Source: Candidatus Multivoradales bacterium | Lineage (GTDB): Bacteria > Acidobacteriota > Thermoanaerobaculia > Multivoradales > JAHEKO01 | NCBI GenBank assembly: GCA_965223155.1 | Contig: CBDCVR010000014.1 | Location: 704,001 to 768,000 of the forward strand | Reading direction: 5' to 3' | Length of the DNA stretch: 64,000 bases | Shown here: piece by piece, positions 11,649 through 61,267 of the stretch | Position numbering within the stretch: position 1 is the first letter of the stretch | Layout: each line of letters starts with the position of its first letter | The notes under the pieces: generated by a model | The model's database searches: none | What the model was told of the DNA's origin: nothing | What the model saw: only the letters and a program-made list of their open reading frames with translations | Program-made: the position numbers and the translations under genes

Positions 11649-11830
11649 GGTGTCTCCTCTCCTGGACTCTATCGGATGCTTGGGGGACGCCTGGGAGGCC
11701 GGGGAGGGCGGCCACGCCACCCTTCCGGTCGAAAACGCAGTGCCGGGTCACTACCACCCGGCACTCGTCCCTCCGGCTGGCGAGTTTCCTTGCAAAGGCG
11801 GGGCCGCAACCACGGCCCCAACGCTTAGAA

Positions 11831-20262: not shown

Positions 20263-20310
20263 ATGCCGGCGCACCAGAGGCAAGCGCCCGCGCCACGAGG
20301 CCCGGACGTT

Positions 20311-20795: not shown

Positions 20796-20890
20796 CGGGC
20801 CCGGCCTTCATCCCCGAGGACCGGAGCAGACAACAGACGCGGGAGACCCTTCGGCCGAACTCCGCACGTCCGATCCGTTGGGCGGGCCTC

Positions 20891-28916: not shown

Positions 28917-29019
28917 GGGAAAAACGGAGGCGAAGCTCGATCTCCCGGGGAAACCGAGCAAGAACCGGACCAGAGAATCCTACCGAATACCGTCCGGTGC
29001 TTCCGCTCCGGCGGCAGAC

Positions 29020-32217: not shown

Positions 32218-32278
32218 CCTGCTTTCGAAAGCTCTCGAACGGAGCAAAGAGTATCAGTGCCTGCGGTACTATTTTTCG

Positions 32279-35835: not shown

Positions 35836-35976
35836 GGCCGGGATTGTGCCACAGCAGATTCCTGGCTTGCCTCTTGCAGCCGATTCCCTTCGGCCGGCCG
35901 GCCCGCGAGTCCGGCTGCCGCAGGAAGCTACAATGCGCGGGCGGCATCCGCCACTCGCCCGCCGAGGAACCCTCCA

Positions 35977-37671
35977 ATGCATCGAAGTCACCGCACCGTC
36001 TCGACGACTGGCCTGGCCCTGATGGCCCTGATGGCTCTGATGGCTCTGATGGCTCTGATCACCCCGCTCGCATGGTTCGCCCAGCCCGCGGCCGCCCAGC
36101 CGCTCGCCGAGCCGATGAGTGATGAGCGGGCGCGCAAGGTCGAGCGCGCCGTCGAGTTGGCGCAGCAGGGTCAGATCGACGCGGCCCGCGAGATCCTGAA
36201 CGGCATCGACACAAACTCCCTCGACGCGCCGGGGCAAGCCCTCATCGGCGCGATCTACGCCCAGATCGGTCCCCCGGCCCGAGCTCTCGAGCTCCTGGCG
36301 CCTCTCGCCGACGCCGCCGACGCCAACCCGGCGGTTCTCTACAACGCCGGGCGCGCGGCCTTCACCATGGGCCAGTTCGCCAGAGCGGAACGGTACTGGC
36401 AGCGGAGCGTAGACGTTCAACCCAACACTCCGGCTTCCCGGGAACTGGCCTTGCTCCGCGCACGGGACGGACGCTGCGATGCGGCCTATCCGGATCTGGT
36501 CTCCTGGCTGCGCGGCGGCGGCGACGAGCCGGAGGTCAAGCTAGTGTCCGCCCTGTGCGCCGTCCAGATGGAACGGCCTCCCGATGCCGAGGAGTTTCTA
36601 GCCGATCTTCCTCAGGAAGATCCTCGCGTCCAGTTGCTCCAGGGCAAGCTCCGCCTGCTGCGCTCCGATCCCGACGGCGCCATCGAGATCCTGGAAAAGG
36701 TCTTCCAGAACCATCCGCCGGCCATGGACTTGGACGTCCGACGCACCCTGGCCGACGTCTACTCGGCCACCGGCCGAGCCTCCCAGGCCGTCGACCTCCT
36801 GCTGGGCCAGGTCGAAGGGCGCCCGGACGCCGTCCTGCAGCTCGGGCTCGCTCAGTATCAGAGCGGCGACCTGGACGGGGCGCTGGCTACCCTCGAGCCC
36901 GCCGCGGCGGCGCTGCTGGCTCGCCTCCAGGCCGGTCAGCCCGCCGGCGAGTACCCCACGGCTCTCCTCATCGAATACGGCCGGTTCTTGGTGCTGGGCG
37001 GCCGCCATGCCGAAGCGCTTCCCTATCTCGAAACCGCTACCCAGGTGGTCCCGGACAGGAAGCAGGGCTGGCAGCAGCTAGGTCAAGCCCTGGCCGCGGT
37101 CGGTCGCCGGGACGAGGCGCGCGCCGCGCTCGACCAGTTCCAGAACATCGTCCAAAACGAGGTCCCTGGCTCGCTGCGCAACATCCGACTCAAGGGCGGC
37201 TTCGAGGATCCGGTCGATCGCGAGCTCCGCCGCGCGTACCTGCTGATGCTCCAGGATCAAGGCACCGAGGCACTCGAGATCGTGCAACGGGAAGCGCGGC
37301 TGGCCCCGAACGATCCCAGGCCCCGCTTGCTCGAGGCCCGCATCTACCTGGCGCTGGAGGACTTCGACGCCGCCGCGGCCACCGCCGACGCTCTCGTCTC
37401 CGGGCTTCCGGGCAACGCCGACGCCCTGTATATCCGCGGCACCACACGCATGGCGCGCCAAGACGTCGAGGGCGCCGAGAGCGACTTGCGTGGCGCTCTG
37501 GAGCTCCATCCGGAGCACACCGCCGCCCTCAATGATCTGGCCGTCCTGCTCATGGACACCGAGCGCGGCGAGGAAGCCCGCGGCCTCCTCGAACGAGCAC
37601 TCGAGATCCGTCCCGACGACGCTCTCGCGCGCGAAAACCTGGCCAAGCTCGACGCCGGCGGCTCGGGCTAG
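35977..37671 (+). CDS. Exported TPR-repeat protein (full-length copy)
   Basis: GAGG RBS then in-frame ATG 35977, signal peptide containing (LMA)n, TPRs (ALNDLAVLL). Confidence 0.85.
   Translation: MHRSHRTVSTTGLALMALMALMALMALITPLAWFAQPAAAQPLAEPMSDERARKVERAVELAQQGQIDAAREILNGIDTNSLDAPGQALIGAIYAQIGPPARALELLAPLADAADANPAVLYNAGRAAFTMGQFARAERYWQRSVDVQPNTPASRELALLRARDGRCDAAYPDLVSWLRGGGDEPEVKLVSALCAVQMERPPDAEEFLADLPQEDPRVQLLQGKLRLLRSDPDGAIEILEKVFQNHPPAMDLDVRRTLADVYSATGRASQAVDLLLGQVEGRPDAVLQLGLAQYQSGDLDGALATLEPAAAALLARLQAGQPAGEYPTALLIEYGRFLVLGGRHAEALPYLETATQVVPDRKQGWQQLGQALAAVGRRDEARAALDQFQNIVQNEVPGSLRNIRLKGGFEDPVDRELRRAYLLMLQDQGTEALEIVQREARLAPNDPRPRLLEARIYLALEDFDAAAATADALVSGLPGNADALYIRGTTRMARQDVEGAESDLRGALELHPEHTAALNDLAVLLMDTERGEEARGLLERALEIRPDDALARENLAKLDAGGSG
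36019..36059 (+). repeat. 9-bp tandem repeat (CTGATGGCY) x4.5 in the signal peptide
   Basis: CTGATGGCC CTGATGGCT CTGATGGCT CTGATGGCT CTGAT encodes LMALMALMALMAL. Confidence 0.92.
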
Positions 37672-40600
37672 GGCAGCGGGGCTTCGAGTTCGATCCAGTT
37701 GATCTCGGCGCGCCGGTTGTTCTCGTTCCAGAGCTCATTGAACTTAACGATCCGAACGCGCACGTCCGAGTAGTCAGTCAAGCCCGAGGCCACCGAGGCC
37801 GGGATCGCAACCCGCATCGTCGATTCCTGGAAGTAGAGATCGCGGCCCCAGTACTTGAGGGTCGTGCCGCCCTGGAGCAGCACGATCCGAATCCGGACCG
37901 GCTCGTTATCGAGCGCCCGGCCGCGGACCCGAAGGACATGGCCTTCGTCGGTCCCGGGATCCGTCATCGAGGCCATCGCAAGGGTGAATGAGTCCGAGGT
38001 GCCGGCCGAGACCGAGGAGGTGACGACGTTCGTCAGATCATCGACCTGCTCGTGAACGGGTGTCGGCGAGAAGGAGTTGGTCGCGGTCGTACCGACAGCG
38101 GCCACCCGCTGGACGGGAGCGGAAACCTCGGGGACTCGAAACTCGACCTCAAACAGCTCGGCCCGACGATCCGAGTTGTTGCCCGTGATCTCATGGAACT
38201 TGACCACCTTAATCTGAACGTCGCCGTAGTCTTCGAGATTCGTGGCGGCTTCGGGAGGTATGGCGACTACCGCGACCGACTCCTCGAAGCCGAACTCGAG
38301 GTTTTGGTAGGTCAGCGAGGTGCTTCCCCGCATCAGGTGCACGCGCAAGGTCACCGGGGCGTTGTCGAGTGCCCGGGCCCGGACGTGGATCTCGTGCCCG
38401 AGATCGGTGTCAGGATCGCCCATCGGAGCCATCCGAACCGTCAGAGCATCGCTCATACTGGTACCAGCCGTCATGCGGGAGGTCACGAAGTTGGTGGGAT
38501 CGTCGAGCTGATCATGGACCGGCTCCGAAGAAGTCCAGTTCGAGCTCACCGTGGCGACCGGATAGGCGCGCCAGGCCTCGAACGTGAGGGCCGCCGGATC
38601 CGACAGGGCTTGTCCGTAGTCGCTCGAGGCCAGGCACCGGTAGGTGCCCGCGCTCGAGGCGTCGACGTTCCGAATCGTAAGCTGGGTAGTCGCGGCGCCT
38701 TCGATGCTGGCATCATCGGCCAGATCCGCGCCGTCTTTCTGCCAAAGATACGAGAGGGTGCCATCGCCCGTCGCCGCGCACGAGAAGCTCGCCTCTCCGC
38801 CGGCGATCGCCGTCGCCGGGGCCGGCTGGCTCGTCACCTGCGGCGGGTTTCCGATAACGAGACTCGCCGAGGCCGACACGGCCTCGCCAAAGCCGTTCGC
38901 CACCCGGCAGGCATACCCGCCGGCATCGGACGCGACCAGACTCGAAACCGTCACGCTTGGAGTCGCTGAGCCCGTCACTCGGGCTCCATCCACGAGCTCG
39001 ACACCGTTTCGGAGCCACTCGTAGCTGAGTGGCTCCGTGCCCGAGGCCGAGCAAGAAAAGGTGGCGCTCGTGCCGACAAGGGTCGAGACGCTTGCGGGAC
39101 TTGTGGTGACTATTGGCGCTGACCCGACCGAGACCAAGGCCTGAGCCGAGATCGCCTCGCCCCAGTCGTTGGCGACGCGGCAGCTGTACTGTCCGGAATC
39201 GCTCCCAACTGCGTTGGAGATCGTCAAGGCTTGAGTCGAAGCGCCCGTGACACGGCCGCCGTCCACAATCGCCTGCCCGTCTTTGTGCCAGGAGTAGGCC
39301 AAAGGCTTCGTCCCGGCTGCGAGGCAGGACAACGAAACGGAGGAACCTTCGGACACGGCCTGAGGTGCCGGCCCTTCGGTCAGATGCGGCCGAACGGCGA
39401 CGGTAAGCTCTGCGGGAGCCGAGATAGCTTCGCCAAACTCGTTCGAGACCTTGCACGAATACACCCCGGCGTCGCCGCTGGAAACCGAGTCGATTGTCAG
39501 CACAGGGGTCTCGGCTCCCGGAATGCCCTCGTCGCACAGCGACACGCTGTCCCGCCACCAGCAGACGTAGGCGGGATGGTCGCTGTAGTAGTCACAGGTC
39601 AGCGAAACCGATTGCCCGGCCAGAACCGTTTGATCCACCGGCTGGTAGGTCAGCACCGGGGCATGCTCGTTGTCCGCCGGAGGTGCCGCGCCGTTGCACA
39701 GGACGGTGCGCTCGGTGCCTTCCGTGCCCATATTGGAGTTGAAGCCGGCAGACGAGTCGGCGTTGACACGGACTCGCGTGGGCTCGGCGGGGATTGCATA
39801 GGGAATGTCGACCGTTACGGTGCCGCCAGGAGGAACGGGACCGACGGCGCCGAGATCCGCCTCCACGAAAATGGGATCGTGGGTCGCGTTCCACACGCTG
39901 GCCCGAAGCTTGTAGCCCTCCTCGAGCGTCCATATGGACGTACCGTCGTTGAGGAAGGAAACCGTGAACGTGTAGTCGGTGCCGCATTCGAGTACCGGCG
40001 GCACCGGCCCAATTGAAATCTGCGCGGAATCCCTGCTAGCGACCTCCTGCGATTCGAGGAGCAGCGCCTCCCCGGAGTGCAAACTCAGGATGGCATTCGT
40101 GGCCAAGACAACGGTCCCGTCGCCGGCCCAGAAGAGAAACGCCGGCACCATAACCGCCCGATCGGCCGCGAGATCGATGACGTAGGTTGTATCTCGGTAG
40201 GCTTTGACACTTCCCCGGACCGCTATCTTGGAGTCGTCAACCCACCACCAGCCCCCCTCGTCCCAGAGCGGATAGAGGCGGCCGTCCTCGAAAACGGCCA
40301 GCGTCTCGACTAGATTCTCCCCCGTGGCCGCAGAAAAGACCCCACCGAAGCCCTCGAAAAGACCTGTCTCGAGGTAGTAGGTACCGTCCGGCGAAAGCCC
40401 GTCGAGATGAGGAGACAGATCCGTGGACGGACTCCAGACGCCGCCGCTGTCTCGTTCGAGACGCACATCAGACTCATAGAGGGGCCGGACCACCAGCGTC
40501 CCCCCAGACTCCCAGAGCACCTCATCGCCGCCATCCAGCATTGCTTCGACCACCCACCCATCGATCGTCACCACAGCGGTCTGGCGGTTGATGAATCCCT

Positions 40601-41018
40601 CTTCGGTGTAATCCCCCAGGACGAGCGCAAGGTGTCTCGAATCGGGCGCCCAGCTGTACTTGTAGACGCCGGTCATCGCAAACTGCTGGGTGCCTGTCTC
40701 CGAATCGAGGACTCTAAGATGGTCCAGACCCTCGACAAACGAAACGAACTGGCCGTCCGGTGAAATACCAGGACGCTTGATGCCGTCCTCGGTGCACCGC
40801 CAGAACACTTCGGGCGGCTCCCCTGGTCGTTGCTGATAAAGCACACTGCGCTCGAAGGCCGCATCTTCGGGGACGAGCTGTTGGGATACCTCGGTCGGAA
40901 TTGCGACTCCGAAGCCAACCACTGGGCTCCATTCTGAGGGCCAGGCCGACGCGCAACTGCCCAGGGCAATGAGGAAATAGGCGGCGTAACCTTGCCTTTG
41001 TCGGGAATTCTGCATCAT
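37668..41018 (-). CDS. Cassette 1 gene B1: signal peptide + beta-propeller + NBR1-like Ig + 4 Ig domains + conserved C-terminal tandem domains (candidate immunity/partner)
   Basis: ISPDGQFVSF, WAPDSRHLA and LSPDGTYY are propeller-type motifs; C..W....D.G.Y.C Ig signature occurs 4 times; ATGA overlap with the A1 stop. Confidence 0.8.
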   Translation of the reverse strand: MMQNSRQRQGYAAYFLIALGSCASAWPSEWSPVVGFGVAIPTEVSQQLVPEDAAFERSVLYQQRPGEPPEVFWRCTEDGIKRPGISPDGQFVSFVEGLDHLRVLDSETGTQQFAMTGVYKYSWAPDSRHLALVLGDYTEEGFINRQTAVVTIDGWVVEAMLDGGDEVLWESGGTLVVRPLYESDVRLERDSGGVWSPSTDLSPHLDGLSPDGTYYLETGLFEGFGGVFSAATGENLVETLAVFEDGRLYPLWDEGGWWWVDDSKIAVRGSVKAYRDTTYVIDLAADRAVMVPAFLFWAGDGTVVLATNAILSLHSGEALLLESQEVASRDSAQISIGPVPPVLECGTDYTFTVSFLNDGTSIWTLEEGYKLRASVWNATHDPIFVEADLGAVGPVPPGGTVTVDIPYAIPAEPTRVRVNADSSAGFNSNMGTEGTERTVLCNGAAPPADNEHAPVLTYQPVDQTVLAGQSVSLTCDYYSDHPAYVCWWRDSVSLCDEGIPGAETPVLTIDSVSSGDAGVYSCKVSNEFGEAISAPAELTVAVRPHLTEGPAPQAVSEGSSVSLSCLAAGTKPLAYSWHKDGQAIVDGGRVTGASTQALTISNAVGSDSGQYSCRVANDWGEAISAQALVSVGSAPIVTTSPASVSTLVGTSATFSCSASGTEPLSYEWLRNGVELVDGARVTGSATPSVTVSSLVASDAGGYACRVANGFGEAVSASASLVIGNPPQVTSQPAPATAIAGGEASFSCAATGDGTLSYLWQKDGADLADDASIEGAATTQLTIRNVDASSAGTYRCLASSDYGQALSDPAALTFEAWRAYPVATVSSNWTSSEPVHDQLDDPTNFVTSRMTAGTSMSDALTVRMAPMGDPDTDLGHEIHVRARALDNAPVTLRVHLMRGSTSLTYQNLEFGFEESVAVVAIPPEAATNLEDYGDVQIKVVKFHEITGNNSDRRAELFEVEFRVPEVSAPVQRVAAVGTTATNSFSPTPVHEQVDDLTNVVTSSVSAGTSDSFTLAMASMTDPGTDEGHVLRVRGRALDNEPVRIRIVLLQGGTTLKYWGRDLYFQESTMRVAIPASVASGLTDYSDVRVRIVKFNELWNENNRRAEINWIELEAPLP

Positions 41019-44000
41019 GGGTCACATTTCAGCTCAAGAGCTGTCTGCGGTTGCCGGAAACCGATATGTAAGTGATGGTGGTGCTGGTCGTTCTCGTATT
41101 TGTAGACGCCGTCTGGAAAGATTGGACAGATGTCTTTGAGTCTGCTGCGGTCGTCGACGATGACCTTTCTTATCAAGCCGCCTGGTGAGTTCTTCTGGAG
41201 GAGGGTCAGGAATAGGCAGGTTGCCTCCGGGTCGAACACCTGATCAGCGTATCGCCAGTCGAACGAAAAACTCTTCTCGTTCGTGTTCTTGAAGTACCTC
41301 ATGTCAATGTCCAGTCCATTCTGGTGGTCGAAGTGGGGGGGGGCCGAACCTCCACGTATCTTGCTAAGGTCGTTGAACATCGGCCGAATCTCACCGACGA
41401 AGTCCGTATCAGTGGGGACCGTTGGGTTGTCGAAGCCCTCGGCGGTGGCCGTGATCCATTTGATAACTGACCACGCACAGCTGTAGTCCTCTTCTTCCCA
41501 GCCGCCGTAGCGACCCCAGTGCTCGCTGGTGCCGAGTGCTGAGGAATTCACCAGGCATCCATTGCTACGGGTGCCGATGTGGTGGCAGGCGGTGCAGGAG
41601 CCGCTGACATGGGGACCGAGGTCCACTCCCGTGTCGAAGGGCGAGAACCCCGTGCCGGAGGCGCTGGCGAAAAGCCGCGTTTCGGTACTTCCGCCGGCAC
41701 AGCCACATCTTTGGGGCAACTGCACCTGGACCGTGCGGCGTCCGGTACGCGGGGGCCACTCGGGATCGCCCTCGATGATGGTCACGTCGACGACTCGGAC
41801 GCATTCGTCTTCGGTCCCAACCGACAAGGCATTCAGCTCGCCACTGGGCTCGGTTTCGTTTTCAAACGTTGGCCCTTCGAAGCCATAGCACCAGAGACCC
41901 GAAATCGACCAGCCTCTTACTAGCGGTATCGTTCCCCGGGTTTCGTAGTTGGCGCAGATCTCGAGATCGATCGCAAACTCGAAGACATTGTCACTGTTGA
42001 ACGGATCGATTAGAACGCAGCCTACGAGAGACCCTTCGATCTCGAGTCGTGCAATGACGTGAAGTACATTGAGTTCGAGGAACTTCTCGGCCCCGGGTAG
42101 CAGACTGACGACTTCCGACGGCGCCATGTCCGCAAGCGACTCCAGGTCCTTCCATAGAGTCTGGGACTCGTCAAAGTCCAAGATGTTGTATCGGTAGTTC
42201 TTGGAGTAGCAGCCACTCAAGATACTTCCGGTAGGGAGCGTGACGTCCGGCTGGAGCAATGTCTCCGTAGGTCTTGGGGCCTGAAGCCGAACGCCTGTGC
42301 CGCCGATGAGCGTCTCGGCGACCGATGCCGTTGCCGTACTGCCACCTACCGTCAGCGGCAGCCGAACGCTGCCTTCGGAAGTGGTCACAACCAGTTCGGA
42401 GGCTCCCAAAGATGCTCCGTGGGTAACAGCAAGCGTTGCAAGGACCCCGTTCGGAGCGGTTCTGACGCTGTGAAACCGAAGGCCGCTCCCGCTCACCGAA
42501 AGCGTTGCACCCGAGAGATTCGCGCCGGCGATCTGAAGGAGGTACTGTCGGCCGCGCGCCACTTCACTGGGCGTGTACGAGTCAACCACAGGTCCCTTTG
42601 GAAGGATTCTCACGAGAGCGAAGTCGATACCTCCGTCGGTTGCGACAGCGAGGGCCTTGAAGCCGACGTCTGCGGACCGTGCGTCGATATCTAAGGTCAG
42701 CTGACTCGCAGAAGAAGAAACCGACGCCACCGAGGGCAGCCCTTTGTTGGCACCACCCGGGAGCCCGAACGAGACATCGGCACCTTGGAGATTTCCACCG
42801 GACAGGGTCGTCCGGGTAACCGCACCTTGGGGCACGACGATCAAAGCATCTGTCAGAGTTGGTGATCCGGCAGTCGGATTCGTGACTTGGATTGCGGAAG
42901 CGTCGAGCTCGCCAAAGCGGGTCCCGCTCGTAGTTTCCATTTGCCAACGGACAGAGTAGTAGCCAGGGACCGCTGAGCCGGGGATCGTGACCTCGAAGAC
43001 GAACGAGTGCGAGCCAGATTCGTCGATCTGTGCACCTGCCGGCAGCTCCACGCTCGCCGGAAAAAAGTCGAGGTCGGTGTCGACGGCCAGCCGATGGGTG
43101 CCGGCCTGCCAAGTCGAGGTACCGTTGTTGGCAACACTTACTGAGATCGTATGGGTCGAACCGAGTGCCATCGGAGACGGAACGTTGGCCGAGACGATGT
43201 CGGCGTCGTTGGCTCCCGTCTGGCAGGTCACCTCGATGGGATGAGAGACGACGCCGCCGAACCAGGCGACGCCCTCGTTGACCATCTGCCACTCCGTCCC
43301 ATAGCTTCCGGGCTGCGACGGCGCGGTCAAGGCGACCGAGAACGAATGCTGGGATTGCGGGGCGATCGAGGCGCTTGTGGGCAGCTGAACCCGAGTCGCA
43401 TCGGCCCGGAACGGGTCGCTTCCTCCCGTCGGGCCTAGTTTGTAGCCGTCCGCCCGTGTCCAGACCGTGTCGCCCGTGTTCTTCATCGTGACGGCATAGG
43501 TCCCCACTTCGCCACAGGCCATCTGCGACGGCAAGTTGTGACCAACAGCCTGGGCAGCGTCTTGACAGGTCACGGTGATGGTCTTCGAGACCTTCTCGCC
43601 GAACCACTGCCCGTTCTCGACCATCTGCCACTCAGTGGTGAGAGTCGTTGCCGTCTCGGGCGCTACCAGCGAGACGTCGAAGGTGTGGGAGTCGTTCTCT
43701 TCGATCGCGAGGCTCGCCGGCAGGTGGACCCGGGCGCCGCTCGGGTTGAAGGGATCGGTATCCCCGGGAACCCCCAGTTGATGACCGCCGGCAGCGGTCC
43801 AGGGCTTCGAGCCGCCGTTGCGAAGCGTTATCTCACGAACCAGGGTCGAGCCGCAGGTCATGGAATCGGGCAGGGTGTCCGAGACCCGGGTGGCAGCGTT
43901 GACGCAATCAACGTCGATCCTGGCAGTCACGAGCGGGCCAAAAGGCTCGCCGTTGTGCTCCATCTGCCAGAGGGTCATGACGTCGTTCTGGTGGGTGTCG

Positions 44001-44752: not shown

Positions 44753-44868
44753 CGTTGGTCACGGGCTGGAATGCGTTGGCGGACGACGACTCGCGGCTCA
44801 GAAAGCCCTGAGAGCGACGGGCTCGCGCCGCCGGAGAACCGACACAACCATTACCAACCACGGAACAC

Positions 44869-44897
44869 AGGGTAGTGGCAACCGTTGTGATTCGCAA
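44869..44897 (-). promoter_or_regulatory. Putative sigma70 promoter, cassette 1
   Basis: TTGCGA-N17-TACCCT; the boxes are conserved in the diverged cassette 3 copy. Confidence 0.55.
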
Positions 44898-45025
44898 GTC
44901 AATTTCAAGGCGAAGCCCCAAACGGCCCGACATCCTGAAGCCGAATCGGATGGGGTGAAGACAGGTCGAGCCCGAAACGGCGGCCCTTCCTAGCGCCGTA
45001 TTCGACCGGCGGCGGCCGGGCCGCC

Positions 45026-52766: not shown

Positions 52767-52882
52767 CGTTGGTCACGGGCTGGAATGCGTTGGCGGACGA
52801 CGACTCGCGGCTCAGAAAGCCCTGAGAGCGACGGGCTCGCGCCGCCGGAGAACCGACACAACCATTACCAACCACGGAACAC

Positions 52883-52911
52883 AGGGTAGTGGCAACCGTT
52901 GTGATTCGCAA
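52883..52911 (-). promoter_or_regulatory. Putative sigma70 promoter, cassette 2
   Basis: Identical to 44869-44897. Confidence 0.55.
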
Positions 52912-53039
52912 GTCAATTTCAAGGCGAAGCCCCAAACGGCCCGACATCCTGAAGCCGAATCGGATGGGGTGAAGACAGGTCGAGCCCGAAACGGCGGCCC
53001 TTCCTAGCGCCGTATTCGACCGGCGGCGGCCGGGCCGCC

Positions 53040-53936
53040 CGAGCATCGCAAGCGGTGGACCTCTTGCTGGGCCGCGTCGAAAGCCGACCGGACGCCGTTT
53101 TGCAGCTCGGGCTCGCCCAGTATCAGAGCGGCGACCTGGACGGGGCGCTGGCTACCCTCGAGCCGGCCGCGGCGGCGCTGCTGGCTCGCCTCCAAGCCGG
53201 TCAGCCCGCCGGCGAATACCCCACGGCTCTCCTCATCGAGTACGGCCGCTTCCTGGTTCTGGGCGGCCGCCATGCCGAAGCGCTCCCCTATCTCGAGACC
53301 GCTACCAAGGTGGTCCCGGACAGGAAGCAGGGCTGGCAGCAGCTAGGTCAAGCCCTGGCCGCGGTCGGCCGCCGGGACGAGGCGCGAGCCGCCCTCGACC
53401 AGTTCCAGAGCATCGTCCAGAACGAGGTTCCCGGATCGCTACGCAACATCCGGCTCAAGGGCGGCTTTGAAGATCCCGTCGATCGCGAGCTCCGCCGCGC
53501 GTACCTGCTCATGCTCCAGGATCAAGGCGCCGAAGCGCTCGAGATCGTGCAACGGGAGGCTCGCCTGGCGCCCGAGGATCCCCGACCCCGCTTGCTCGAA
53601 GCCCGCATCTATCTCGCCCAAGAGGACTTCGACGCCGCGGCGGCCGCCGCCGAGGCTCTCGTCGCTGGACTTCCGGGTAACGCAGACGCCCTCTACATCC
53701 GCGGCACCACGCGCATGGCGCGGCAGGACATGGAGGGCGCCGAGAGCGACCTGCGCAACGCCCTCGAGCTCCATCCCGAGCACACCGCCGCCCTCAACGA
53801 CCTGGCCGTCCTGCTCATGGACACCGACCGGGGCCAGGAAGCTCGCGGCCTCCTGGAACGAGCGCTCGAGATCCGTCCCGACGACACCCTCGCGCGCGAG
53901 AACCTGAACAAGCTCGACGCCGGCGGCTCGGGCTAG
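53040..53936 (+). pseudogene. 3' half of the TPR gene (5'-truncated copy 3)
   Basis: Translation identical to 45041-45922; offset 8014. Confidence 0.75.
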
Positions 53937-56900
53937 GGCAGCGGGGCTTCGAGTTCGATCCAGTTGATCTCGGCGCGCCGGTTGCTCTCGTTCCAGAGCT
54001 CATTGAACTTGACGATCCGAACGCGCACGTCCGAGTAGTCAGTCAAGCCCGAGGCCACCGAGGCCGGGATCGCAACCCGCACCGTCGACTCCTCGAAGTC
54101 GAGATCGCGGCCCCAGTACTTGAGGGTCGTACCGCCCTGGAGCAGCATGATCCGAATCCGGACCGGCTCGTTATCGAGCGCCCGGCCGCGGACCCGAAGG
54201 ACATGGCCTTCGTCGGTCCCGGGATCCGTCATCGAGGCCATCGCAAGGGTGAATGAGTCCGAGGTGCCGGCCGAGACCGAGGAGGTGACGACGTTCGTCA
54301 GATCATCGACCTGCTCGTGAACGGGTGTCGGCGAGAAGGAGTTGGTCGCGGTCGTACCGACAGCGGCCACCCGCTGGACCGGAGCGGAAACCTCGGGAAC
54401 CCGAAACTCGACCTCTACGAGCTCGGCCCGGCGGTCCGAGTTGTTGCCCGAGATCTCATGGAACTTGACCACCTTGATCTGGACGTCGCCGTAGTCTTCG
54501 AGATTCGTGGCGGCTTCGGGAGGTATGGCGACTACCGCGACCGACTCCTCGAAGCCGAACTCGAGGTTCTGGTAGGTCAGCGAGGTGCTTCCCCGCATCA
54601 GGTGCACGCGCAAGGTCACCGGGGCGTTGTCGAGCGCCCGGGCCCGGACGTGGATCTCGTGCCCGAGATCGGTATCCGGGTCGCTCATCGGGGCCATGCG
54701 GACCGTCAGAGCGTCGCTCAGGCTGGTGCCGGCGGTCATGCGGGAGGTCACCACGGTGGTGGGATCGTCGAGCTGGTCATGGACCGGCTCCGAGGAGATC
54801 CAGTTCGAGCTCAGGGTCTCGACCGGATAAGCGCGCCAAGACTCGAAGTCGAGGGCCGCCGGATCCGACAGGGCTTGTCCGTAGTCGCTCGAAGCCAGGC
54901 ACCGGTAGGTGCCCGCGCTCGAGGCGTCGACGTTCCGAATCGTAACCTGGGCAGTCGCGGCGCCTTCGATGCTGGCATCATCGGCCAGATCCGCGCCGTC
55001 TTTCTGCCACTGATACGAGAGGGTGCCATCGCCCGTTGCCGCGCACGAGAAGCTCGCCTCTCCGCCGGCGATCGCCGTCGCCGGGGCCGGCTGGCTCGTC
55101 ACCTGCGGCGGGTTTCCAATGACGAGACTCGCGGAAACGGACGTCACCTCGCCAAAGCCGTTCGCCACCCGGCAGGAATACCCGCCCGCATCGGACGCGA
55201 CCAGACTCGACACCGTCACGCTCGGAGTCGCTGAGCCCGTCACTCGGGCGCCATCCACGAGCTCGACGCCATTCCGCAACCATTGGTAGGCGAGCGGCTC
55301 CGAGCCCGAGGCCGAGCAGGAAAACGTGGCGCTCGTGCCGACAAGGGTCGAGACGCTTGCGGGACTTGTGGTGACAATTGGCGCTGACCCGACCGAGACC
55401 AAGGCCTGGGCCGAGATCGCCTCGCCCCAGTCGTTGGCGACGCGGCAGCTGTACTGTCCGGAATCGCTCCCAACTGCGTTGGAGATCGTCAAGGCTTGAG
55501 TCGAAGCGCCCGTGACACGGCCGCCGTCCACAATCGCCTGCCCGTCTTTGTGCCAGGAGTAGGCCAAAGGCTCCGTCCCGGCTGCGAGGCAGGACAACGA
55601 AACGGAGGAACCTTCGGACACAGCCTGAGGTGCCGGCCCTTCGGTCAGATGCGGCCGAACGGCGACGGTAAGCTCTGCGGGAGCCGAGATAGCTTCGCCA
55701 AACTCGTTCGAGACCTTGCACGAATACGCCCCGGCATCGCCGCTGGAAACCGAGTCGATTGTCAGCACAGGGGTCTCGGCTCCCGGAATGCCCTCGTCGC
55801 ACAGCGACACGCTGTCCCGCCACCAGCAGACGTAGGCGGGATGGTCGCTGTAGTAGTCACAGGTCAGCGAAACCGATTGCCCGGCCAGAACCGTCTGATC
55901 CACCGGCTGGTAGGTCAGCACCGGGGCATGCTCGTTGTCCGCCGGAGGCGCGGCGCCATTGCACAGGACGGTGCGCTCAATTCCCTCCAACTCGGCAAAA
56001 AGGTTCTGGCCGAACACGGCATCAGCTCGTATTGCGACTTTGGCTGGGGCGGCCGGAGTGGTATAGGAGACACTTAAGTTCAAAGTCTCGCCCGGGGAAA
56101 CTGGCCCGAGGGTCGAAAGATCGGCTTCGAGCAAGATAGGGTCGTGCATCGCGCCGTGCACAACCGCGCGAAGCTCATACCCGTCCTCGACTGTCCAAGT
56201 TGACGTGCCGTCGTTCAGGAAAGAAGCAACAAAGTCGTACGTCGTACTGCACTCGAGAACAGCGGGGATCGGCCCGGCTGAAAGTCGCGCGGAATCTCTA
56301 TCCCCGGTTTCCTGGGACGCCGAGAGCAGTGCTTCTGCCGAGTGCGAGTTCAGGATGGCGTTCGTTGCGAGGATGACGTCACCTTCGCCGGCCCAAAACA
56401 GAAAGGCCCGTTCCAGGACGGCGCGGTCAGCCGCGAGATCGATGATGTAGGTCACGTCTCGGTAGGCACTGAGGCTTCCCCGAACCGCGATCTTGGAGTC
56501 GTCAATCCACCACCAGGACTCGTCGCTCCATTCCGGGTAGAGTCGTCCTTCATCGAAGACGGACAGCGTCTCGACGAGATTTTCCCCTGTGGCCCTTTCG
56601 AAGATCCCGTAGAGGCCCGAAGCCCCGCCTTGAACATAGTGAGTCCCTCCTGGTGAGAGTCGGTCAAGGTAAGGGGATTGGTCGGCAGACGGGCTCCAGA
56701 CTGCGTTCGCCTCCCGCTCTAGCCGCATCTCGTCCTCGAACTGGGGATCGTCATAGCGCACAACCAAGGATCCCTCGGGTTCCCAGTGGACTTCAATTCC
56801 GCCCTCGAGAACCGATTCGACGACCCAGCCGTCCGTGGCGACGACTGCCGTTTGGCGGTTCATGAAGCGGTCGCTCTCAGCGTCTTCCCCCAATAAGATC

Positions 56901-57301
56901 GCCAGATACTTCGAGTCCGGAGACCATTGGAATCTGTAGCCTCCAGGCATTTCAAACAGCTGCATCCCGGAATCAGAATCCAGCACGCGGAGAAAAACGT
57001 AGCCCTCGACAAATGCGATGAACCGACCGTTAGGAGAGATTGAGGAATCTGCGATCCAGTTCCCTGCACCTTGCCAAAAGACCTCTGGCGGTTGCCCGAG
57101 CTGTTGGATGTAGAGGACATTCTCGCCGAAGGTCGTACCTTCAACAACGAGTTGGTGAAGTAGCTCAGCCGAGGTAACAACCCCGAAGCCGGCCAGCGAA
57201 CTCCAGTCCGAAGGCCTGGCGGCCATCGGAGTTCCGAAAACAAGGATAAGAACTGCTACAACCCGGATGCCCTGATCACGCAGTGACTTCACTGGTCGCA
57301 T
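53933..57301 (-). CDS. Cassette 3 gene B3: signal peptide + beta-propeller variant + NBR1-like Ig + 4 Ig domains + conserved C-terminus
   Basis: ISPNGRFIAF, WSPDSKYLA. N-terminus homologous to B1 but diverged; near-identical from ERTVLCNG onward. Start is ATG 57301 or GTG 57292 (GTGA overlap with A3). Confidence 0.8.
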   Translation of the reverse strand: MRPVKSLRDQGIRVVAVLILVFGTPMAARPSDWSSLAGFGVVTSAELLHQLVVEGTTFGENVLYIQQLGQPPEVFWQGAGNWIADSSISPNGRFIAFVEGYVFLRVLDSDSGMQLFEMPGGYRFQWSPDSKYLAILLGEDAESDRFMNRQTAVVATDGWVVESVLEGGIEVHWEPEGSLVVRYDDPQFEDEMRLEREANAVWSPSADQSPYLDRLSPGGTHYVQGGASGLYGIFERATGENLVETLSVFDEGRLYPEWSDESWWWIDDSKIAVRGSLSAYRDVTYIIDLAADRAVLERAFLFWAGEGDVILATNAILNSHSAEALLSASQETGDRDSARLSAGPIPAVLECSTTYDFVASFLNDGTSTWTVEDGYELRAVVHGAMHDPILLEADLSTLGPVSPGETLNLSVSYTTPAAPAKVAIRADAVFGQNLFAELEGIERTVLCNGAAPPADNEHAPVLTYQPVDQTVLAGQSVSLTCDYYSDHPAYVCWWRDSVSLCDEGIPGAETPVLTIDSVSSGDAGAYSCKVSNEFGEAISAPAELTVAVRPHLTEGPAPQAVSEGSSVSLSCLAAGTEPLAYSWHKDGQAIVDGGRVTGASTQALTISNAVGSDSGQYSCRVANDWGEAISAQALVSVGSAPIVTTSPASVSTLVGTSATFSCSASGSEPLAYQWLRNGVELVDGARVTGSATPSVTVSSLVASDAGGYSCRVANGFGEVTSVSASLVIGNPPQVTSQPAPATAIAGGEASFSCAATGDGTLSYQWQKDGADLADDASIEGAATAQVTIRNVDASSAGTYRCLASSDYGQALSDPAALDFESWRAYPVETLSSNWISSEPVHDQLDDPTTVVTSRMTAGTSLSDALTVRMAPMSDPDTDLGHEIHVRARALDNAPVTLRVHLMRGSTSLTYQNLEFGFEESVAVVAIPPEAATNLEDYGDVQIKVVKFHEISGNNSDRRAELVEVEFRVPEVSAPVQRVAAVGTTATNSFSPTPVHEQVDDLTNVVTSSVSAGTSDSFTLAMASMTDPGTDEGHVLRVRGRALDNEPVRIRIMLLQGGTTLKYWGRDLDFEESTVRVAIPASVASGLTDYSDVRVRIVKFNELWNESNRRAEINWIELEAPLP

Positions 57302-60300
57302 CTCAGCTCCAGTGCGGTTTGAGGTTGTTTGAAACGGATGTGCAGATGGTTGTGGTGGTCGCCGACGTAGCTGAACTTGCTTGCCAGGTCCTTGCATCTC
57401 TTTTTGAGCTTGCTTCGCTCGTCACTGAGTATCGTCAAGATGCGGTCGCCGGTTCCGCTCGAACTGCCGTTCAGCAGCTTCAAGAAGTTGCAGGTCACTG
57501 CAGGTTCAAAAGTCGCATCGTCGTTACTGGTGCCTCGGAACTCAAACGGGCCATCATCCCAGTTGTGAAAGTAGCGCATATCTAGATCAAGTCCGTTTTC
57601 GTGGGTGGCGTGGTCCGGGGTATCTCCGCCCCGTTGCAAACTGAGGTCGTTGAACATGGGTTGGATCTCCTCGCCTTGCCAATTGGGGTTTCTTCCAACC
57701 GTGGGATTGTGGAATTGCTGCGCCGCAGCCCTGAGCCACGAGATGACGGACCAGTCGCAGCTGTAGTCGTGTGCTTGCCATCCGCCATAGCGACCAAAGT
57801 GCTCACTGGTGCCTAGTGCCGAAGAATTCACAAGGCATCCTGGCTCGCGTTTGCCGCCGATCGTGCCGTAGCCTCCAATGTGATGGCATGCCGTGCACGA
57901 GCCGCTCACGTGGGGGCCGGGGTCCACTCCTGTATCGAAGGGTGAGAATCCGGTGCCGGAGGCGCTGGCGAAAAGCCGCGTTTCGGTACTTCCGCCGGCA
58001 CAGCCACATCTTTGGGGCAACTGCACCTGGACCGTGCGGCGTCCGGTACGCGGGGGCCACTCGGGATCGCCCTCGATGACGGTTACGTCGACAACCCGGA
58101 CGCATTCGTCCTCGGTCCCAACCGACAAGGCATTCAGCTCGCCACTGGGCTCGGTTTCGTTTTCAAACGTTGGCCCTTCGAAGCCATAGCACCAGAGACC
58201 CGAAATCGACCAGCCTCTTACTAGCGGTATCGTTCCCCGGGTTTCGTAGTTGGCGCAGATCTCGAGATCGATCGCAAACTCGAAGACATTGTCACTGTTG
58301 AACGGATCGATTAGAACGCAGCCTACGAGAGACCCTTCGATCTCGAGTCGTGCAATGACGTGAAGTACATTGAGTTCGAGGAACTTCTCGGCCCCGGGTA
58401 GCAGACTGACGACTTCCGACGGCGCCATGTCCGCAAGCGACTCCAGGTCCTTCCATAGAGTCTGGGACTCGTCAAAGTCCAAGATGTTGTATCGGTAGTT
58501 CTTGGAGTAGCAGCCACTCAAGATACTTCCGGTAGGGAGCGTGACGTCCGGCTGGAGCAATGTCTCCGTAGGTCTTGGGGCCTGAAGCCGAACGCCTGTG
58601 CCGCCGATGAGCGTCTCGGCGACCGATGCCGTTGCCGTACTGCCACCTACCGTCAGCGGCAGCCGAACGCTGCCTTCGGAAGTGGTCACAACCAGTTCGG
58701 AGGCTCCCAAAGATGCTCCGTGGGTAACAGCAAGCGTTGCAAGGACCCCGTTCGGAGCGGTTCTGACGCTGTGAAACCGAAGGCCGCTCCCGCTCACCGA
58801 AAGCGTTGCACCCGAGAGATTCGCGCCGGCGATCTGAAGGAGGTACTGTCGGCCGCGCGCCACTTCACTGGGCGTGTACGAGTCAACCACAGGTCCCTTT
58901 GGAAGGATTCTCACGAGAGCGAAGTCGATACCTCCGTCGGTTGCGATAGCGAGGGCCTTGAAGCCGACGTCTGCGGACCGTGCGTCGATATCTAAGGTCA
59001 GCTGACTCGCAGAAGAAGAAACCGACGCCACCGAGGGCAGCCCTTTGTTGGCACCACCCGGGAGCCCGAACGAGACATCGGCACCTTGGAGATTTCCACC
59101 GGACAGGGTCGTCCGGGTAACCGCACCTTGGGGCACGACGATCAAAGCATCTGTCAGAGTTGGTGATCCGGCAGTCGGATTCGTGACTTGGATTGCGGAA
59201 GCGTCGAGCTCGCCAAAGCGGGTCCCGCTCGTAGTTTCCATTTGCCAACGGACAGAGTAGTAGCCAGGGACCGCTGAGCCGGGGATCGTGACCTCGAAGA
59301 CGAACGAGTGCGAGCCAGATTCGTCGATCTGTGCACCTGCCGGCAGCTCCACGCTCGCCGGAAAAAAGTCGAGGTCGGTGTCGACGGCCAGCCGATGGGT
59401 GCCGGCCTGCCAAGTCGAGGTACCGTTGTTGGCAACACTTACCGAGATCGTGTGGGTCGAACCGAGTGCCATCGGAGACGGAACGTTGGCCGAGACGATG
59501 TCGGCGTCGTTGGCCCCCGTCTGGCAGGCCACCTCGATGGGATGAGAGACGACGCCACCAAACCAGCCAACCCCCTCGTTGACCATCTGCCATTCCGTTA
59601 CATAGCTGCCAGGCTGCGCCGGTGCGGTCAGGGACACCGAGAACGAATGCTGGGATTGCGGGGCGATCGAGGCGCTTGTGGGCAGCTGAACCCGAGTCGC
59701 ATCGGCCCGGAACGGGTCGCTTCCTCCCGTCGGGCCTAGTTTGTAGCCGTCCGCCCGTGTCCAGACCGTGTCGCCCGTGTTCTTCATCGTGACGGCATAG
59801 GTCCCCACTTCGCCACAGGCCATCTGCGACGGCAAGTTGTGACCAACAGCCTGGGCAGCGTCTTGACAGGTCACGGTGATGGTCTTCGAGACCTTCTCGC
59901 CGAACCACTGCCCGTTCTCGACCATCTGCCACTCAGTGGTGAGAGTCGTTGCCGTCTCGGGCGCTACCAGCGAGACGTCGAAGGTGTGGGAGTCGTTCTC
60001 TTCGATCGCGAGGCTCGCCGGCAGGTGGACCCGGGCGCCGCTCGGGTTGAAGGGATCGGTATCCCCGGGAACCCCCAGTTGATGACCGCCGGCAGCGGTC
60101 CAGGGCTTCGAGCCGCCGTTGCGAAGCGTTATCTCACGAACCAGGGTCGAGCCGCAGGTCATGGAATCGGGCAGGGTGTCCGAGACCCGGGTGGCAGCGT
60201 TGACGCAATCAACGTCGATCCTGGCAGTCACGAGCGGGCCAAAAGGCTCGCCGTTGTGCTCCATCTGCCAGAGGGTCATGACGTCGTTCTGGTGGGTGTC

Positions 60301-61053
60301 GCTCGGGGCCTGGAGGGGAACCTTGAAAGGGTACTGGCCTCCGCCGCGACCGACCGTGACATTGCTCGGCAAGCGCACCGGAGCGCCGGACGGGTTGAAC
60401 GCGTCGCTCGTGCCCACGTTGGCGAGATAGAACCCAGCCGCGTCGGTCCAGTCGGTCGAGCCCATGTTCTGGAGCGTCACCGTGGCTTCGTCTTCCGAAG
60501 AGCAGTTCATCGCCGCCGGGAACACCTCGGCGGCGAGGACCGCGTGATCCCCACAGACGACGTTGATGTCCTTGAAGACGATCGAACCGAACCATTCGAC
60601 CCCCTGCTCGGCCATCTGCCACTCCGTGCGCACGACGCCGTGGACGTCCGGGGCGGTCAACTCGACGGTGAACGTGTGCCGCTGTCCCGGAGCGATGGTC
60701 GTGCCTACGGGGAGCCGGACCTTGTTGCCGTTCGGCCGAAACGGATCGTCGTTGTCCGTGACCCCGAGCCGGTGCCCGTTCGTACCGTCCTCGGTCCAGT
60801 CGCCCGTACCGACGTTCTCGAGCCGAATCGTGAACGACTCGGTGTCGCCGCAGTACATCGCGTCCGGCAGGTTCTGCGAGACGACAAGAGCATCATTGAC
60901 GTCGGCGCCGACCGGCGGATCCTCTGGCCCCGGGTCGGGCTCCTGGGCGGTGGCGACCGCGGCTGCCGCGAGCACGGCTGCGCAGGCTCGCCCGATTCTT
61001 CGGTATCGGCGGGAGGGGCTAGCCTTCTGTCGTCCCATCCCAACCCACTCCAT
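57289..61053 (-). CDS. Cassette 3 gene A3: secreted NBR1-like Ig-repeat protein with a second MepA-like C-terminal variant
   Basis: Near-identical to A1 up to SGSCTACHHIG, then diverged but retaining DLS...GG, HATHENGLDLDMR and HHNHLH. Confidence 0.8.
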   Translation of the reverse strand: MEWVGMGRQKASPSRRYRRIGRACAAVLAAAAVATAQEPDPGPEDPPVGADVNDALVVSQNLPDAMYCGDTESFTIRLENVGTGDWTEDGTNGHRLGVTDNDDPFRPNGNKVRLPVGTTIAPGQRHTFTVELTAPDVHGVVRTEWQMAEQGVEWFGSIVFKDINVVCGDHAVLAAEVFPAAMNCSSEDEATVTLQNMGSTDWTDAAGFYLANVGTSDAFNPSGAPVRLPSNVTVGRGGGQYPFKVPLQAPSDTHQNDVMTLWQMEHNGEPFGPLVTARIDVDCVNAATRVSDTLPDSMTCGSTLVREITLRNGGSKPWTAAGGHQLGVPGDTDPFNPSGARVHLPASLAIEENDSHTFDVSLVAPETATTLTTEWQMVENGQWFGEKVSKTITVTCQDAAQAVGHNLPSQMACGEVGTYAVTMKNTGDTVWTRADGYKLGPTGGSDPFRADATRVQLPTSASIAPQSQHSFSVSLTAPAQPGSYVTEWQMVNEGVGWFGGVVSHPIEVACQTGANDADIVSANVPSPMALGSTHTISVSVANNGTSTWQAGTHRLAVDTDLDFFPASVELPAGAQIDESGSHSFVFEVTIPGSAVPGYYSVRWQMETTSGTRFGELDASAIQVTNPTAGSPTLTDALIVVPQGAVTRTTLSGGNLQGADVSFGLPGGANKGLPSVASVSSSASQLTLDIDARSADVGFKALAIATDGGIDFALVRILPKGPVVDSYTPSEVARGRQYLLQIAGANLSGATLSVSGSGLRFHSVRTAPNGVLATLAVTHGASLGASELVVTTSEGSVRLPLTVGGSTATASVAETLIGGTGVRLQAPRPTETLLQPDVTLPTGSILSGCYSKNYRYNILDFDESQTLWKDLESLADMAPSEVVSLLPGAEKFLELNVLHVIARLEIEGSLVGCVLIDPFNSDNVFEFAIDLEICANYETRGTIPLVRGWSISGLWCYGFEGPTFENETEPSGELNALSVGTEDECVRVVDVTVIEGDPEWPPRTGRRTVQVQLPQRCGCAGGSTETRLFASASGTGFSPFDTGVDPGPHVSGSCTACHHIGGYGTIGGKREPGCLVNSSALGTSEHFGRYGGWQAHDYSCDWSVISWLRAAAQQFHNPTVGRNPNWQGEEIQPMFNDLSLQRGGDTPDHATHENGLDLDMRYFHNWDDGPFEFRGTSNDDATFEPAVTCNFLKLLNGSSSGTGDRILTILSDERSKLKKRCKDLASKFSYVGDHHNHLHIRFKQPQTALELRCDQ

Positions 61054-61168
61054 CGTTGGTCACGGGCTGGAATGCGTTGGCGGACGACGACTCGCGGCTC
61101 AGAAAGCCCTGAGAGCGACGGGCTCGCGCCGCCGGAGAACCGACACAACCATTACCAACCACGCGGTC

Positions 61169-61197
61169 AGGGTAGTGGAAAACGTTGCGACTTGCAA
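61169..61197 (-). promoter_or_regulatory. Putative sigma70 promoter, cassette 3
   Basis: TTGCAA-N17-TACCCT. Confidence 0.55.
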
Positions 61198-61267
61198 GTC
61201 AATCGATAATCTGGGTCTAGACTCGAGCCTCGTCTTCCTGGCGATCCGTGCCTGCTCTTCTCACCGG

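Follow-up and report, generated by a model that had tools for sequence, protein, structure and literature searches.

The window analysed here is a 64,000-nt stretch of the genome of a Candidatus Multivoradales bacterium (contig CBDCVR010000014.1, positions 704,001 to 768,000); coordinates are positions in this window unless another locus is named. At 36.8-61.2 kb, self-blastn distinguished three head-to-tail copies of an 8-kb unit, each containing two long minus-strand genes, here named A and B, whose variable parts meet at the A/B junction (Table 1). All six genes are open frames on the minus strand, in agreement with the three tandem gene pairs reported in a first-pass annotation of this DNA. 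Long parts of the units are nearly identical: 42981-47327 shares 98.2% nucleotide sequence identity with 50995-55341, and 41418-44903 shares 96.9% with 57698-61203. A full TPR gene, convergent to B1, ends at 37671, and since its 293-codon 3' end is copied in the units, the array is the product of a tandem duplication of a segment cutting through this neighbouring gene.

Overlapping stop and start codons of A and B had also been described, and the DNA confirms this as an ATGA overlap in pair 1 and, provided that B2 starts at 48831, in pair 2; in pair 3 the overlap is 14 nt long, provided that B3 starts at the ATG at 57301. A mechanical list of open reading frames (ORFs) gives longer versions of both B genes (B2, 45919-48897; B3, 53933-57397), but because the overlaps arise at the downstream ATGs, the listed starts probably lie too far upstream and are unlikely to be used. 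Whole-genome searches revealed two more pairs in the source genome (98.7% complete; three contigs >1.2 Mb and 12 small ones), which gives five pairs in total. The fourth (A4/B4) is a complete pair on another contig, again with an ATGA overlap. The fifth (A5/B5) is placed at a contig end and shows a 56-nt gap between the genes and an apparent frameshift in B5. The frame change falls within the Ig stalk (~8990-9100 of locus L012, ~2.8 kb before the end of contig C14) and may be genuine or may stem from misassembly of the repeat. The original observation is therefore borne out and extends to five pairs genome-wide, with one amendment: every cassette is full length in the window, and the fifth pair departs from this rule.

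Table 1. Features of the A/B gene array and its variable junctions (positions in the 64,000-nt window).
Feature	Position	Strand	Description and basis
Repeat unit 1	36770-44903	-	TPR gene 3' end, B1, A1 and ~150 nt upstream of A1; self-blastn
Repeat unit 2	45021-52917	-	TPR fragment, B2, A2, upstream region; self-blastn
Repeat unit 3	53035-61203	-	TPR fragment, B3, A3, upstream region; self-blastn
A1	41015-44752	-	1245 aa; signal peptide, 5 Nbr1-FW, CARDB-like, IPT-like, Cys-rich pre-tip, M74-like tip
A1 Cys-rich pre-tip	41498-42325	-	~aa 810-1085
A1 variable tip	41018-41497	-	aa 1086-1245; MepA/M74-like LAS peptidase, H..D and HxH motifs
A2	48828-52766	-	1312 aa; A1-type stalk, diverged IPT/pre-tip, DUF3238-like tip
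A2 variable tip	48831-49514	-	aa 1085-1312; DUF3238-like
A3	57289-61053	-	1254 aa; ~100% identical to A1 until ~aa 1100, diverged M74-like tip
A3 pre-tip end and variable M74-like tip	57292-57906	-	aa 1050-1254
B1	37668-41018	-	1116 aa; signal peptide, predicted propeller, FW-like, 4 Ig I-set, 2 C-terminal domains
B1 variable N-terminal predicted beta-propeller	40014-40937	-	~aa 28-335; AlphaFold2 model, Foldseek, homologues beside M74-like genes
B1 FW-like domain, within variable region	39669-40013	-	59% identical to B3
B1 four Ig I-set domains, constant stalk	38574-39656	-	Pfam
B1 constant C-terminal region, an unnamed ~140-aa domain present twice	37671-38531	-	
B2	45919-48831	-	970 aa from ATG at 48831; signal peptide, HEAT, Ig I-set, 2 C-terminal domains
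B2 variable N-terminal HEAT-repeat domain	47900-48831	-	Pfam HEAT_2, E 1.8e-17
B3	53933-57301	-	1122 aa from ATG at 57301; propeller type; N-terminal domain 56-60% identical to B1
B3 variable N-terminal predicted propeller domain	56297-57301	-	
TPR-gene fragment, copy 1	45041-45922	+	293 aa; C-terminus of the TPR gene ending at 37671
TPR-gene fragment, copy 2	53055-53936	+	293 aa

Every A and B protein begins with a charged N-terminus followed by a hydrophobic stretch; judged by eye, these are the signal peptides claimed earlier. The stalk of A (Pfam) consists of five Nbr1-type FW domains (PF16158, E ~1e-37), then one CARDB-like domain, with an IPT-like region after it. Between this stalk and the C-terminal tip lies a Cys-rich pre-tip of ~280 residues, which in A1 matched no family in Pfam or PHROGs. 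The tip is MepA/M74-like in A1, A3 and A5 and DUF3238-like in A2 and A4. The sole Pfam match of the M74-like tips is PF03411 (Peptidase_M74), and it is weak, with bit scores of 22.4 (A1), 18.2 (A3) and 25.6 (A5) at a curated cut-off of 25. These tips comprise ~160 aa, compared with the 240 positions of the profile, of which they cover positions 2-92 and the C-terminal motif. They align with Escherichia coli MepA (PDB 1tzp) at an N-terminal GxxSNGC, at HQxGLDxD and at the C-terminal HxH, and thus possess both the H-x(6)-D and the H-x-H motif. Neither the three tips nor the sequences of an 8-homologue alignment vary at H94, D101, H178 or H180; among 17 aligned sequences, H94 and D101 are likewise constant, and H178 and H180 almost so. 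Judging by the literature on MepA, we take these motif residues to be zinc ligands. The MepA-like label given before holds for the metal motifs, while at the profile level it is weak, A1 and A3 being under the cut-off. The DUF3238-like label of the A2 tip is marginal: PF11579 (cut-off 21.1) scores 21.8 bits with the tip alone and 18.0 bits in the whole protein, and 14.7 bits with the A4 tip. An AlphaFold2 model of the A2 tip (4-row alignment; mean predicted local distance difference test score, pLDDT, 45) was too poor for a fold search, and its best ESM Atlas score (0.82) was not informative.

The B proteins are composed of (i) a signal-like N-terminus, (ii) a variable domain, (iii) four or five Ig I-set domains (E ~1e-55), and (iv) two C-terminal domains of ~140 aa. 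The variable head is a propeller in B1, B3 and B5, where it is followed by an FW-like domain, and is built of HEAT repeats in B2 and B4. The first-pass label of HEAT is clear from the Pfam match (Table 1). The propeller domain is without a Pfam match; here the AlphaFold2 model of the B1 N-terminus (17-row alignment) has a mean pLDDT of 72, with 85-96 over residues 70-200, and among the PDB matches listed by Foldseek all are beta-propellers, at modest TM scores of 0.31-0.45. The model thus points to a propeller fold for the N-terminal domains of B1, B3 and B5, as had been suggested. The last B domain (37671-38111 in B1, ~147 aa) has an ESM Atlas score of 0.97 to tailed-phage hypothetical proteins of ~157 aa, with which it has 206 of 256 features in common; searches of PHROGs and of PDB sequences gave no match, and we mention this resemblance as a lead only.

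The distribution of sequence identity along the proteins (sliding identity) shows a mosaic of constant and variable parts. Over their first ~500 residues, identity among all five A proteins is 92-100%. A1 and A3 remain ~100% identical until ~residue 1100 and fall to 32-53% in the tip; A2 and A4 are 100% identical at residues 500-1050, with 32-55% in the tip. Similarity between A1 and A2 ends at ~residue 600, and that of A5 to the other A proteins at ~residue 500, with diverged sequences beyond. The B proteins show the reverse arrangement: identity between B1 and B3 rises from 35-72% in the N-terminal ~450 aa to 86-100% in the remainder, and that between B2 and B4 from 16-70% N-terminally to 86-100% C-terminally. 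The constant N-terminus and variable C-terminus of A, mirrored in B, are thereby confirmed, and from the differing positions of divergence among the A and B pairs it follows that there are several different breakpoints.

Synonymous divergence (dS) is 0.03-0.17 in the constant parts and at least 1.6, or uncomputable through saturation, in the junction. The ratio of nonsynonymous to synonymous divergence (dN/dS) is 0.15-0.35 in the junction and 0.12-0.26 in the constant parts of the window frames; for the tips of A1 and A3, dN is 0.43 and dS is saturated. The GC content of the junctions is 58-62%, vs. ~67% around them. Because junction dS is saturated at dN/dS values of 0.15-0.35, while the dS of the flanks is only 0.03-0.17, the junctions are old alleles under purifying selection, placed in flanks that were recently duplicated or homogenised. 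Two other sources of variation were considered and rejected: (i) a diversity-generating retroelement or another form of hypermutation, in view of the saturated junction dS and dN/dS below 1, and (ii) antigenic variation from silent cassettes, as a start, a signal peptide and a conserved upstream region are present in each of the units.

Units sharing >4 kb at 97-98% identity are hard to assemble, and it could be argued that the array is a collapsed or mis-joined repeat, a set of stitched strain variants, or a decaying and non-functional duplication. Short-read contigs from four public runs (all of one study, possibly the source of the assembly) end at the borders of the constant parts and none spans two units, so that the tandem order is taken from the assembly only; the apparent frameshift of the fifth B gene near a contig end points the same way. 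We nevertheless regard an artefact as very improbable. The same short-read contigs recovered each of the three variable junctions without differences, the six window frames are intact over 970-1312 codons with constant parts at the low dN/dS given above, a further complete pair lies on another contig, the genome is assembled into three large and 12 small contigs, and the duplicated piece of the TPR gene indicates that a segment was genuinely copied.

Co-variation across the junction, proposed on the basis of the three window cassettes, was found in all five pairs, which match by type (M74-like with propeller, DUF3238-like with HEAT). In profile searches of the six-frame ORFs of the whole genome, the M74-like tip was found three times, the propeller three times and the DUF3238-like tip twice, in each case as part of one of the five pairs. 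The co-variation of tip and partner, the presence of several diverged pairs in one genome, and the two long Ig-type stalks varying at the ends that would meet might also suit allorecognition, in which the A tip would bind the B N-terminus on a neighbour cell, a junction match would denote kinship, and an enzyme and its inhibitor would have been co-opted as lock and key. This we consider quite unlikely: the metal/catalytic motif of the peptidase is retained in three copies, which pure recognition does not require, Pfam scans list neither a membrane anchor nor a signalling domain in A or B, and no second strain with the locus was found in the genomes searched.

The pairing of M74-like tip and propeller was also found outside this genome. 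Among 71 loci with M74-like domains from other genomes (pattern and tblastn searches, one genome per species, ±7 kb each), the B N-terminal domains matched directly downstream of the peptidase in 10 (tblastn). A partner profile, built from three B domains and seven of these tblastn matches, detected, in 13 of the 71 loci, a gene of ~330-370 codons immediately downstream in the same orientation, and nothing elsewhere within ±7 kb; one weak match (L100, E 5e-4) was left out of the 13. Hydrophobic leader-like N-termini occur in the six partners inspected, and Pfam gives only sub-threshold PD40, DPPIV_N or WD40 signals for the partners. One locus of Ignavibacteriaceae (L034, 6639-9229) carries two propeller-partner genes after the M74-like gene.

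A tree of 95 tip domains was calculated by a quick maximum-likelihood search and midpoint-rooted; it includes 87 loci (2 of 89 were dropped, covering <110 profile positions), the three tips of this genome and five proteins of unknown context. One clade (22 rows, SH-aLRT 94) contains all 16 partner-coupled tips, including A1, A3 and A5, as well as the five proteins of unknown context and one uncoupled gene, which lies between transposase-like frames and is flanked by insertion sequences (L111). Within this clade, which spans at least seven phyla, the next gene encodes a B-propeller homologue in 16 of 17 members of known context, and the partner is absent in all 73 rows outside it. The distances of tips and partners in the 16 pairs are correlated (Spearman 0.66; 0 of 2000 permutations as high), also without the three pairs of this genome (0.43; 5 of 2000), although the relatedness of the rows inflates both tests. 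These tests show that tip and partner genes move and diverge together.

The same tip subfamily is placed on various scaffolds. With the A1 tip as query, HMMER matched 33 of 1.84 billion representative proteins at E ≤ 1e-3, and 8 of the 10 analysed with Pfam carry Peptidase_M74. Two of the tree proteins of unknown context are (i) P0007 (1037 aa; encoded on a 4.9-kb contig), with RHS repeats and DUF6531 and an M74-like domain at the extreme C-terminus, and (ii) P0002 (1683 aa; from a metagenome-assembled genome, MAG, of Acidobacteriota), in which the tip is combined with a related pre-tip and nine FW domains. Their PF03411 scores are 30.8 and 32.6 bits, respectively, and the C-terminal ~170 aa of P0007 share ~36% identity with the A1 tip along the matched stretch (28-30% in multiple alignments). 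In a Nitrospiraceae MAG (L048), an M74-like domain forms the C-terminus of a protein of 1370 aa that contains nine InlB B-repeats. The M74-like C-terminal domain is thus found on unrelated scaffolds, namely RHS, InlB-B-repeat and FW stalk, and MepA-like DD-peptidase domains have been described among WHIX effectors of type VI secretion systems (T6SS) (PMC12135965).

The second module is rarer. PF11579 occurs in 3 of 301 genomes of the phylum, this genome counted. In another acidobacterium (G054), an 825-aa protein with a signal peptide has a C-terminal domain that shares 24% identity with the A2 tip (E 1e-8), and its gene is followed by that of a 214-aa HEAT_2 protein and then by a transposase gene. 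In the third genome (G147), the DUF3238 domain is internal to a 2107-aa Laminin_G_3 protein. No paper on DUF3238 was found in the literature searched. HEAT-type immunity proteins are on record as ImmHEAT (PMC3482391).

The complete A/B design was found only in this genome. The first-pass annotation had proposed a search of other genomes for the constant A region and the B tail, and its outcome was negative: full-length A was not found in 40 relatives, including four genomes of the same genus, in which only FW/IPT parts and three short M74-like ORFs were detected, and the B C-terminal domain pair occurs in none of 300 other genomes of the class. A full A/B pair was detected in none of the other genomes searched. 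Metagenome scans with alignments of the DUF3238-like tip and the B C-terminal domains gave pattern matches, from which no relative was confirmed. Protein homologue searches, which need shared words and scored up to ~8000 candidates each, returned (i) no match to the A2 tip among proteins of 721-2296 aa, (ii) for the B1 N-terminal part only this genome's B1 and B3 and one weak unrelated match among proteins of 613-1953 aa, with no propeller-plus-Ig protein beyond this genome's own in that size range, and (iii) for A1 residues 610-1090 only A1 itself.

On contig C13 of the same genome (locus L013, 4187-12484), an exported protein of 2765 aa is related to both the A and the B stalk, which it combines in one chain, and lacks tip and partner. 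It contains FW repeats, a central region of ~470 aa without a Pfam match, two PKD domains, six Ig I-set domains, the B C-terminal domain in four copies, and a Laminin_G_3 domain. As it recombines the stalk modules, these form a general building set in this organism. In two related genomes, tandem paralogues matching CARDB/IPT of A were noticed: three at 2598-18288 of L104 (G026, contig C3) and two in L105 (G037, contig C10), each of ~1620-1650 aa and 50-90% identical along the whole length, with a dip near the C-terminus. These ~1640-aa paralogues were rejected as mosaic relatives, their divergence being even along the length.

We interpret the A/B pairs, with a probability of roughly 55%, as a lineage-specific polymorphic toxin/immunity system of the Sec class, in which the putative immunity domain is fused to its own stalk of ~700 residues. 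Two effector/partner modules, which elsewhere form small adjacent genes or reside on RHS and other scaffolds, would have been grafted onto an exported stalk pair. The M74-like tip may cut peptidoglycan cross-links, the overlap of stop and start codons may couple the translation of A and B, and the B N-terminal domain could bind and block its cognate tip in the periplasm or on the surface of the producer. Complex prediction for the A1 tip and the B1 propeller (17-row alignment of each) gave an ipSAE of 0.00 in two runs, a value that weighs on neither side as to binding. The five diverged pairs would then provide several non-cross-protecting specificities for antagonism or kin discrimination. 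More speculatively, the Ig stalk of B might hold the inhibited toxin on the surface, or leave the cell with it like a colicin immunity protein, until a target is contacted. Of the two functions suggested by the first-pass annotation, an effector/antidote or an allorecognition pair, the former is favoured by its comparative fit to a toxin/immunity module and the latter is rated below it. Its designation as a candidate new system holds for the unusual build; the pairs belong with the Sec-class polymorphic toxins and are not categorically new.

Several observations weigh against a toxin/immunity function. There are no orphan tip or immunity cassettes in the six-frame ORFs of the genome, and no secretion apparatus or outer-membrane route for A (~130 kDa) is evident among the window genes. 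The 18 M74-like matches in 17 of 400 sampled genomes of the phylum are without a propeller within ±1.5 kb, and the propeller coupling is therefore confined to one tip subfamily. Stand-alone M74-like genes with a propeller neighbour are often lipoprotein-like, so the pair could be a housekeeping wall enzyme with its regulator. The DUF3238-like tip has no known activity, and its pairing with HEAT, seen once elsewhere, is a single, imperfect replicate: the HEAT protein of G054, as called, has no evident signal peptide and does not match the B2 N-terminus significantly (E 0.09). Finally, we know of no precedent for an immunity domain fused to an exported Ig stalk of ~700 residues.

Some of these points would suit a non-antagonistic function, i.e., a two-stalk surface fibre or enzyme display in which tip and partner form a docking joint of the enzyme-inhibitor or cohesin-dockerin style. 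Paralogue-specific junctions would then prevent wrong A-B pairing, and the role would be adhesion, peptidoglycan scavenging or host interaction. The 2765-aa protein shows that a "stalk - middle domain - stalk" arrangement is native here, the stand-alone M74-like genes with propeller neighbours resemble exported lipoproteins, like housekeeping wall enzymes with adaptors, the window is rich in exported TPR, sulfatase and FG-GAP/ASPIC proteins, and orphan cassettes are missing. We judge a docking joint unlikely, however, since the tip subfamily also ends an RHS-repeat protein, a scaffold known from toxins, and since old alleles in near-identical flanks, with low-GC junctions, are the pattern of a polymorphic toxin locus. 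Moreover, a joint made of an inhibited enzyme has no obvious use, and two unrelated junction types on one scaffold fit swappable effectors better.

Display and toxicity could be united in a so far undescribed contact device, in which A and B would be displayed together on the cell surface, joined tip to tip by a polymorphic enzyme-inhibitor lock; with a neighbour bearing the matching B the lock would remain closed or pair anew and so signal kin, and a mismatch would free the peptidase or DUF3238-like tip to attack. Such a device, which we hold to be unlikely, would be a Sec-dependent, stalk-borne weapon of kin discrimination, with the immunity protein forming part of the delivery structure.

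The other genes of the window encode exported TPR, sulfatase-TPR and FG-GAP/ASPIC proteins, a TonB-type receptor and threonyl-tRNA synthetase; genes for PAAR/VgrG/Hcp-type linkage are absent from it. Six FG-GAP/ASPIC-UnbV paralogues (4759-7266, 27123-28961, 32009-34009, 34006-36420, 61268-62968 and 62965-63999) flank the array, interleaved with TPR and sulfatase-TPR genes, and some pairs of them share 66-68% DNA identity. The TPR gene adjoining B1 contains a 9-bp tandem repeat (36014-36059; 5.1 copies, unit TGGCTCTGA), which encodes a (MAL)n run in its signal peptide. Between the gene of the TonB-type receptor and a CarboxypepD_reg/TPR gene, two tandem copies of ~490 bp, 91% identical and without a convincing ORF, were found at 20303-21376. 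Two adjacent minus-strand ORFs, 9471-11720 (749 aa) and 11831-14023 (730 aa), have a high GC content at third codon positions and no Pfam match at E ≤ 1e-4. The sheath protein VipB/TssC, the sole T6SS family searched genome-wide, gave no match in this almost complete genome, which encodes two secretins and has 83 RHS-repeat matches in many large ORFs. Arrays of RHS ORFs are located on contigs C13 (184-197 kb), C15 (951-981 kb), C14 (157-182 kb), C1, C2 and C9, and several small contigs are RHS pieces.

Polymorphic toxins with signal peptides are recognised as a "T2SS/Sec" class (T2SS, type II secretion system) (PMC3482391; Zhang, de Souza, Anantharaman, Iyer, and Aravind, 2012). The A/B pairs resemble this class in the signal peptide of A, the repeat-built N-terminus, the exchangeable C-terminal effector with a sharp break of identity, the co-varying gene immediately downstream, and immunity of the HEAT type. 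They differ from it in three respects: (i) Pfam scans of the six A/B proteins list no RHS/YD, two-partner secretion/haemagglutinin repeats, ALF, tail-fibre, MafB-N, LXG or releasing-peptidase domains, and together with the scans of the window genes they uphold the earlier statement that RHS/YD, haemagglutinin, LXG and secretion-system genes are lacking, the stalk being built of Nbr1-FW, CARDB-like and IPT-like domains instead; (ii) the partner is not small but is the N-terminal domain of an exported Ig-stalk protein of 970-1120 aa; and (iii) no orphan cassettes follow the A/B pairs. The A1 tip has the same H..D/HxH motifs as P0007 and belongs to the same clade of the tip tree, whereas the N-terminal part of P0007 consists of RHS repeats and DUF6531, without an FW stalk.

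A functional parallel to the M74-like/propeller module is the pair Tse1/Tsi1 of Pseudomonas aeruginosa: Tse1 is a peptidoglycan hydrolase, and Tsi1, which confers immunity to it, has a partial beta-propeller fold (PMC3391265). In both cases a peptidoglycan-cutting effector, putative in A, faces a periplasmic all-beta propeller partner, predicted here, which in Tsi1 is described as similar to DPP IV propellers; the weak PD40/DPPIV_N signals of the partners of M74-like genes fit this likeness. Tse1 is an NlpC/P60-type amidase delivered by type VI secretion, and Tsi1 is small and stands alone, whereas the A tip is LAS metallopeptidase-like, in a genome without a T6SS sheath match, and the B propeller heads a long protein. 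Compared with MepA, the M74-like tip is short (~160 aa), ends a protein of 1245 aa and is a member of the subfamily accompanied by a propeller gene.

Colicins and pyocins are made together with their immunity proteins (~10 kDa in colicins), bind them tightly and leave the cell as a complex. Such complexes are a possible model for the export of B, although there is no sequence or domain relation to A or B, and no lysis gene or receptor/translocation domains are recognisable with the A/B pairs. As an allorecognition system, the A/B pairs would resemble TgrB1/TgrC1 of Dictyostelium and IdsD/IdsE of Proteus, in which neighbouring genes encode two polymorphic proteins that bind each other through their variable parts; the Tgr proteins have IPT/Ig-like folds. 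In contrast to these, the variable parts of A and B are enzyme-like and repeat-protein domains, which elsewhere form small adjacent genes, and membrane anchors are lacking.

No description of the M74-subfamily/propeller pair was found in the literature searched; the supplementary tables of PMC3482391 and PMC12135965 might list such families. General reach is limited for now, as the system seems confined to one little-studied environmental lineage. If the A/B pairs are a toxin/immunity system, they would include a new effector-immunity pair, consisting of an M74-like peptidase subfamily and a PD40-like propeller that travel together in at least seven phyla, would provide a lead on the function of DUF3238, and would introduce an Nbr1-FW-built scaffold to the Sec-class polymorphic toxins. 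As far as our searches show, the concept is known, and the FW-stalk scaffold and the M74-subfamily/propeller and DUF3238-like/HEAT modules are new. New above all, within the same limits, is an immunity-like domain heading its own large exported stalk, and a stalked immunity protein of this kind would raise the question of whether immunity proteins take part in the display or delivery of toxins.

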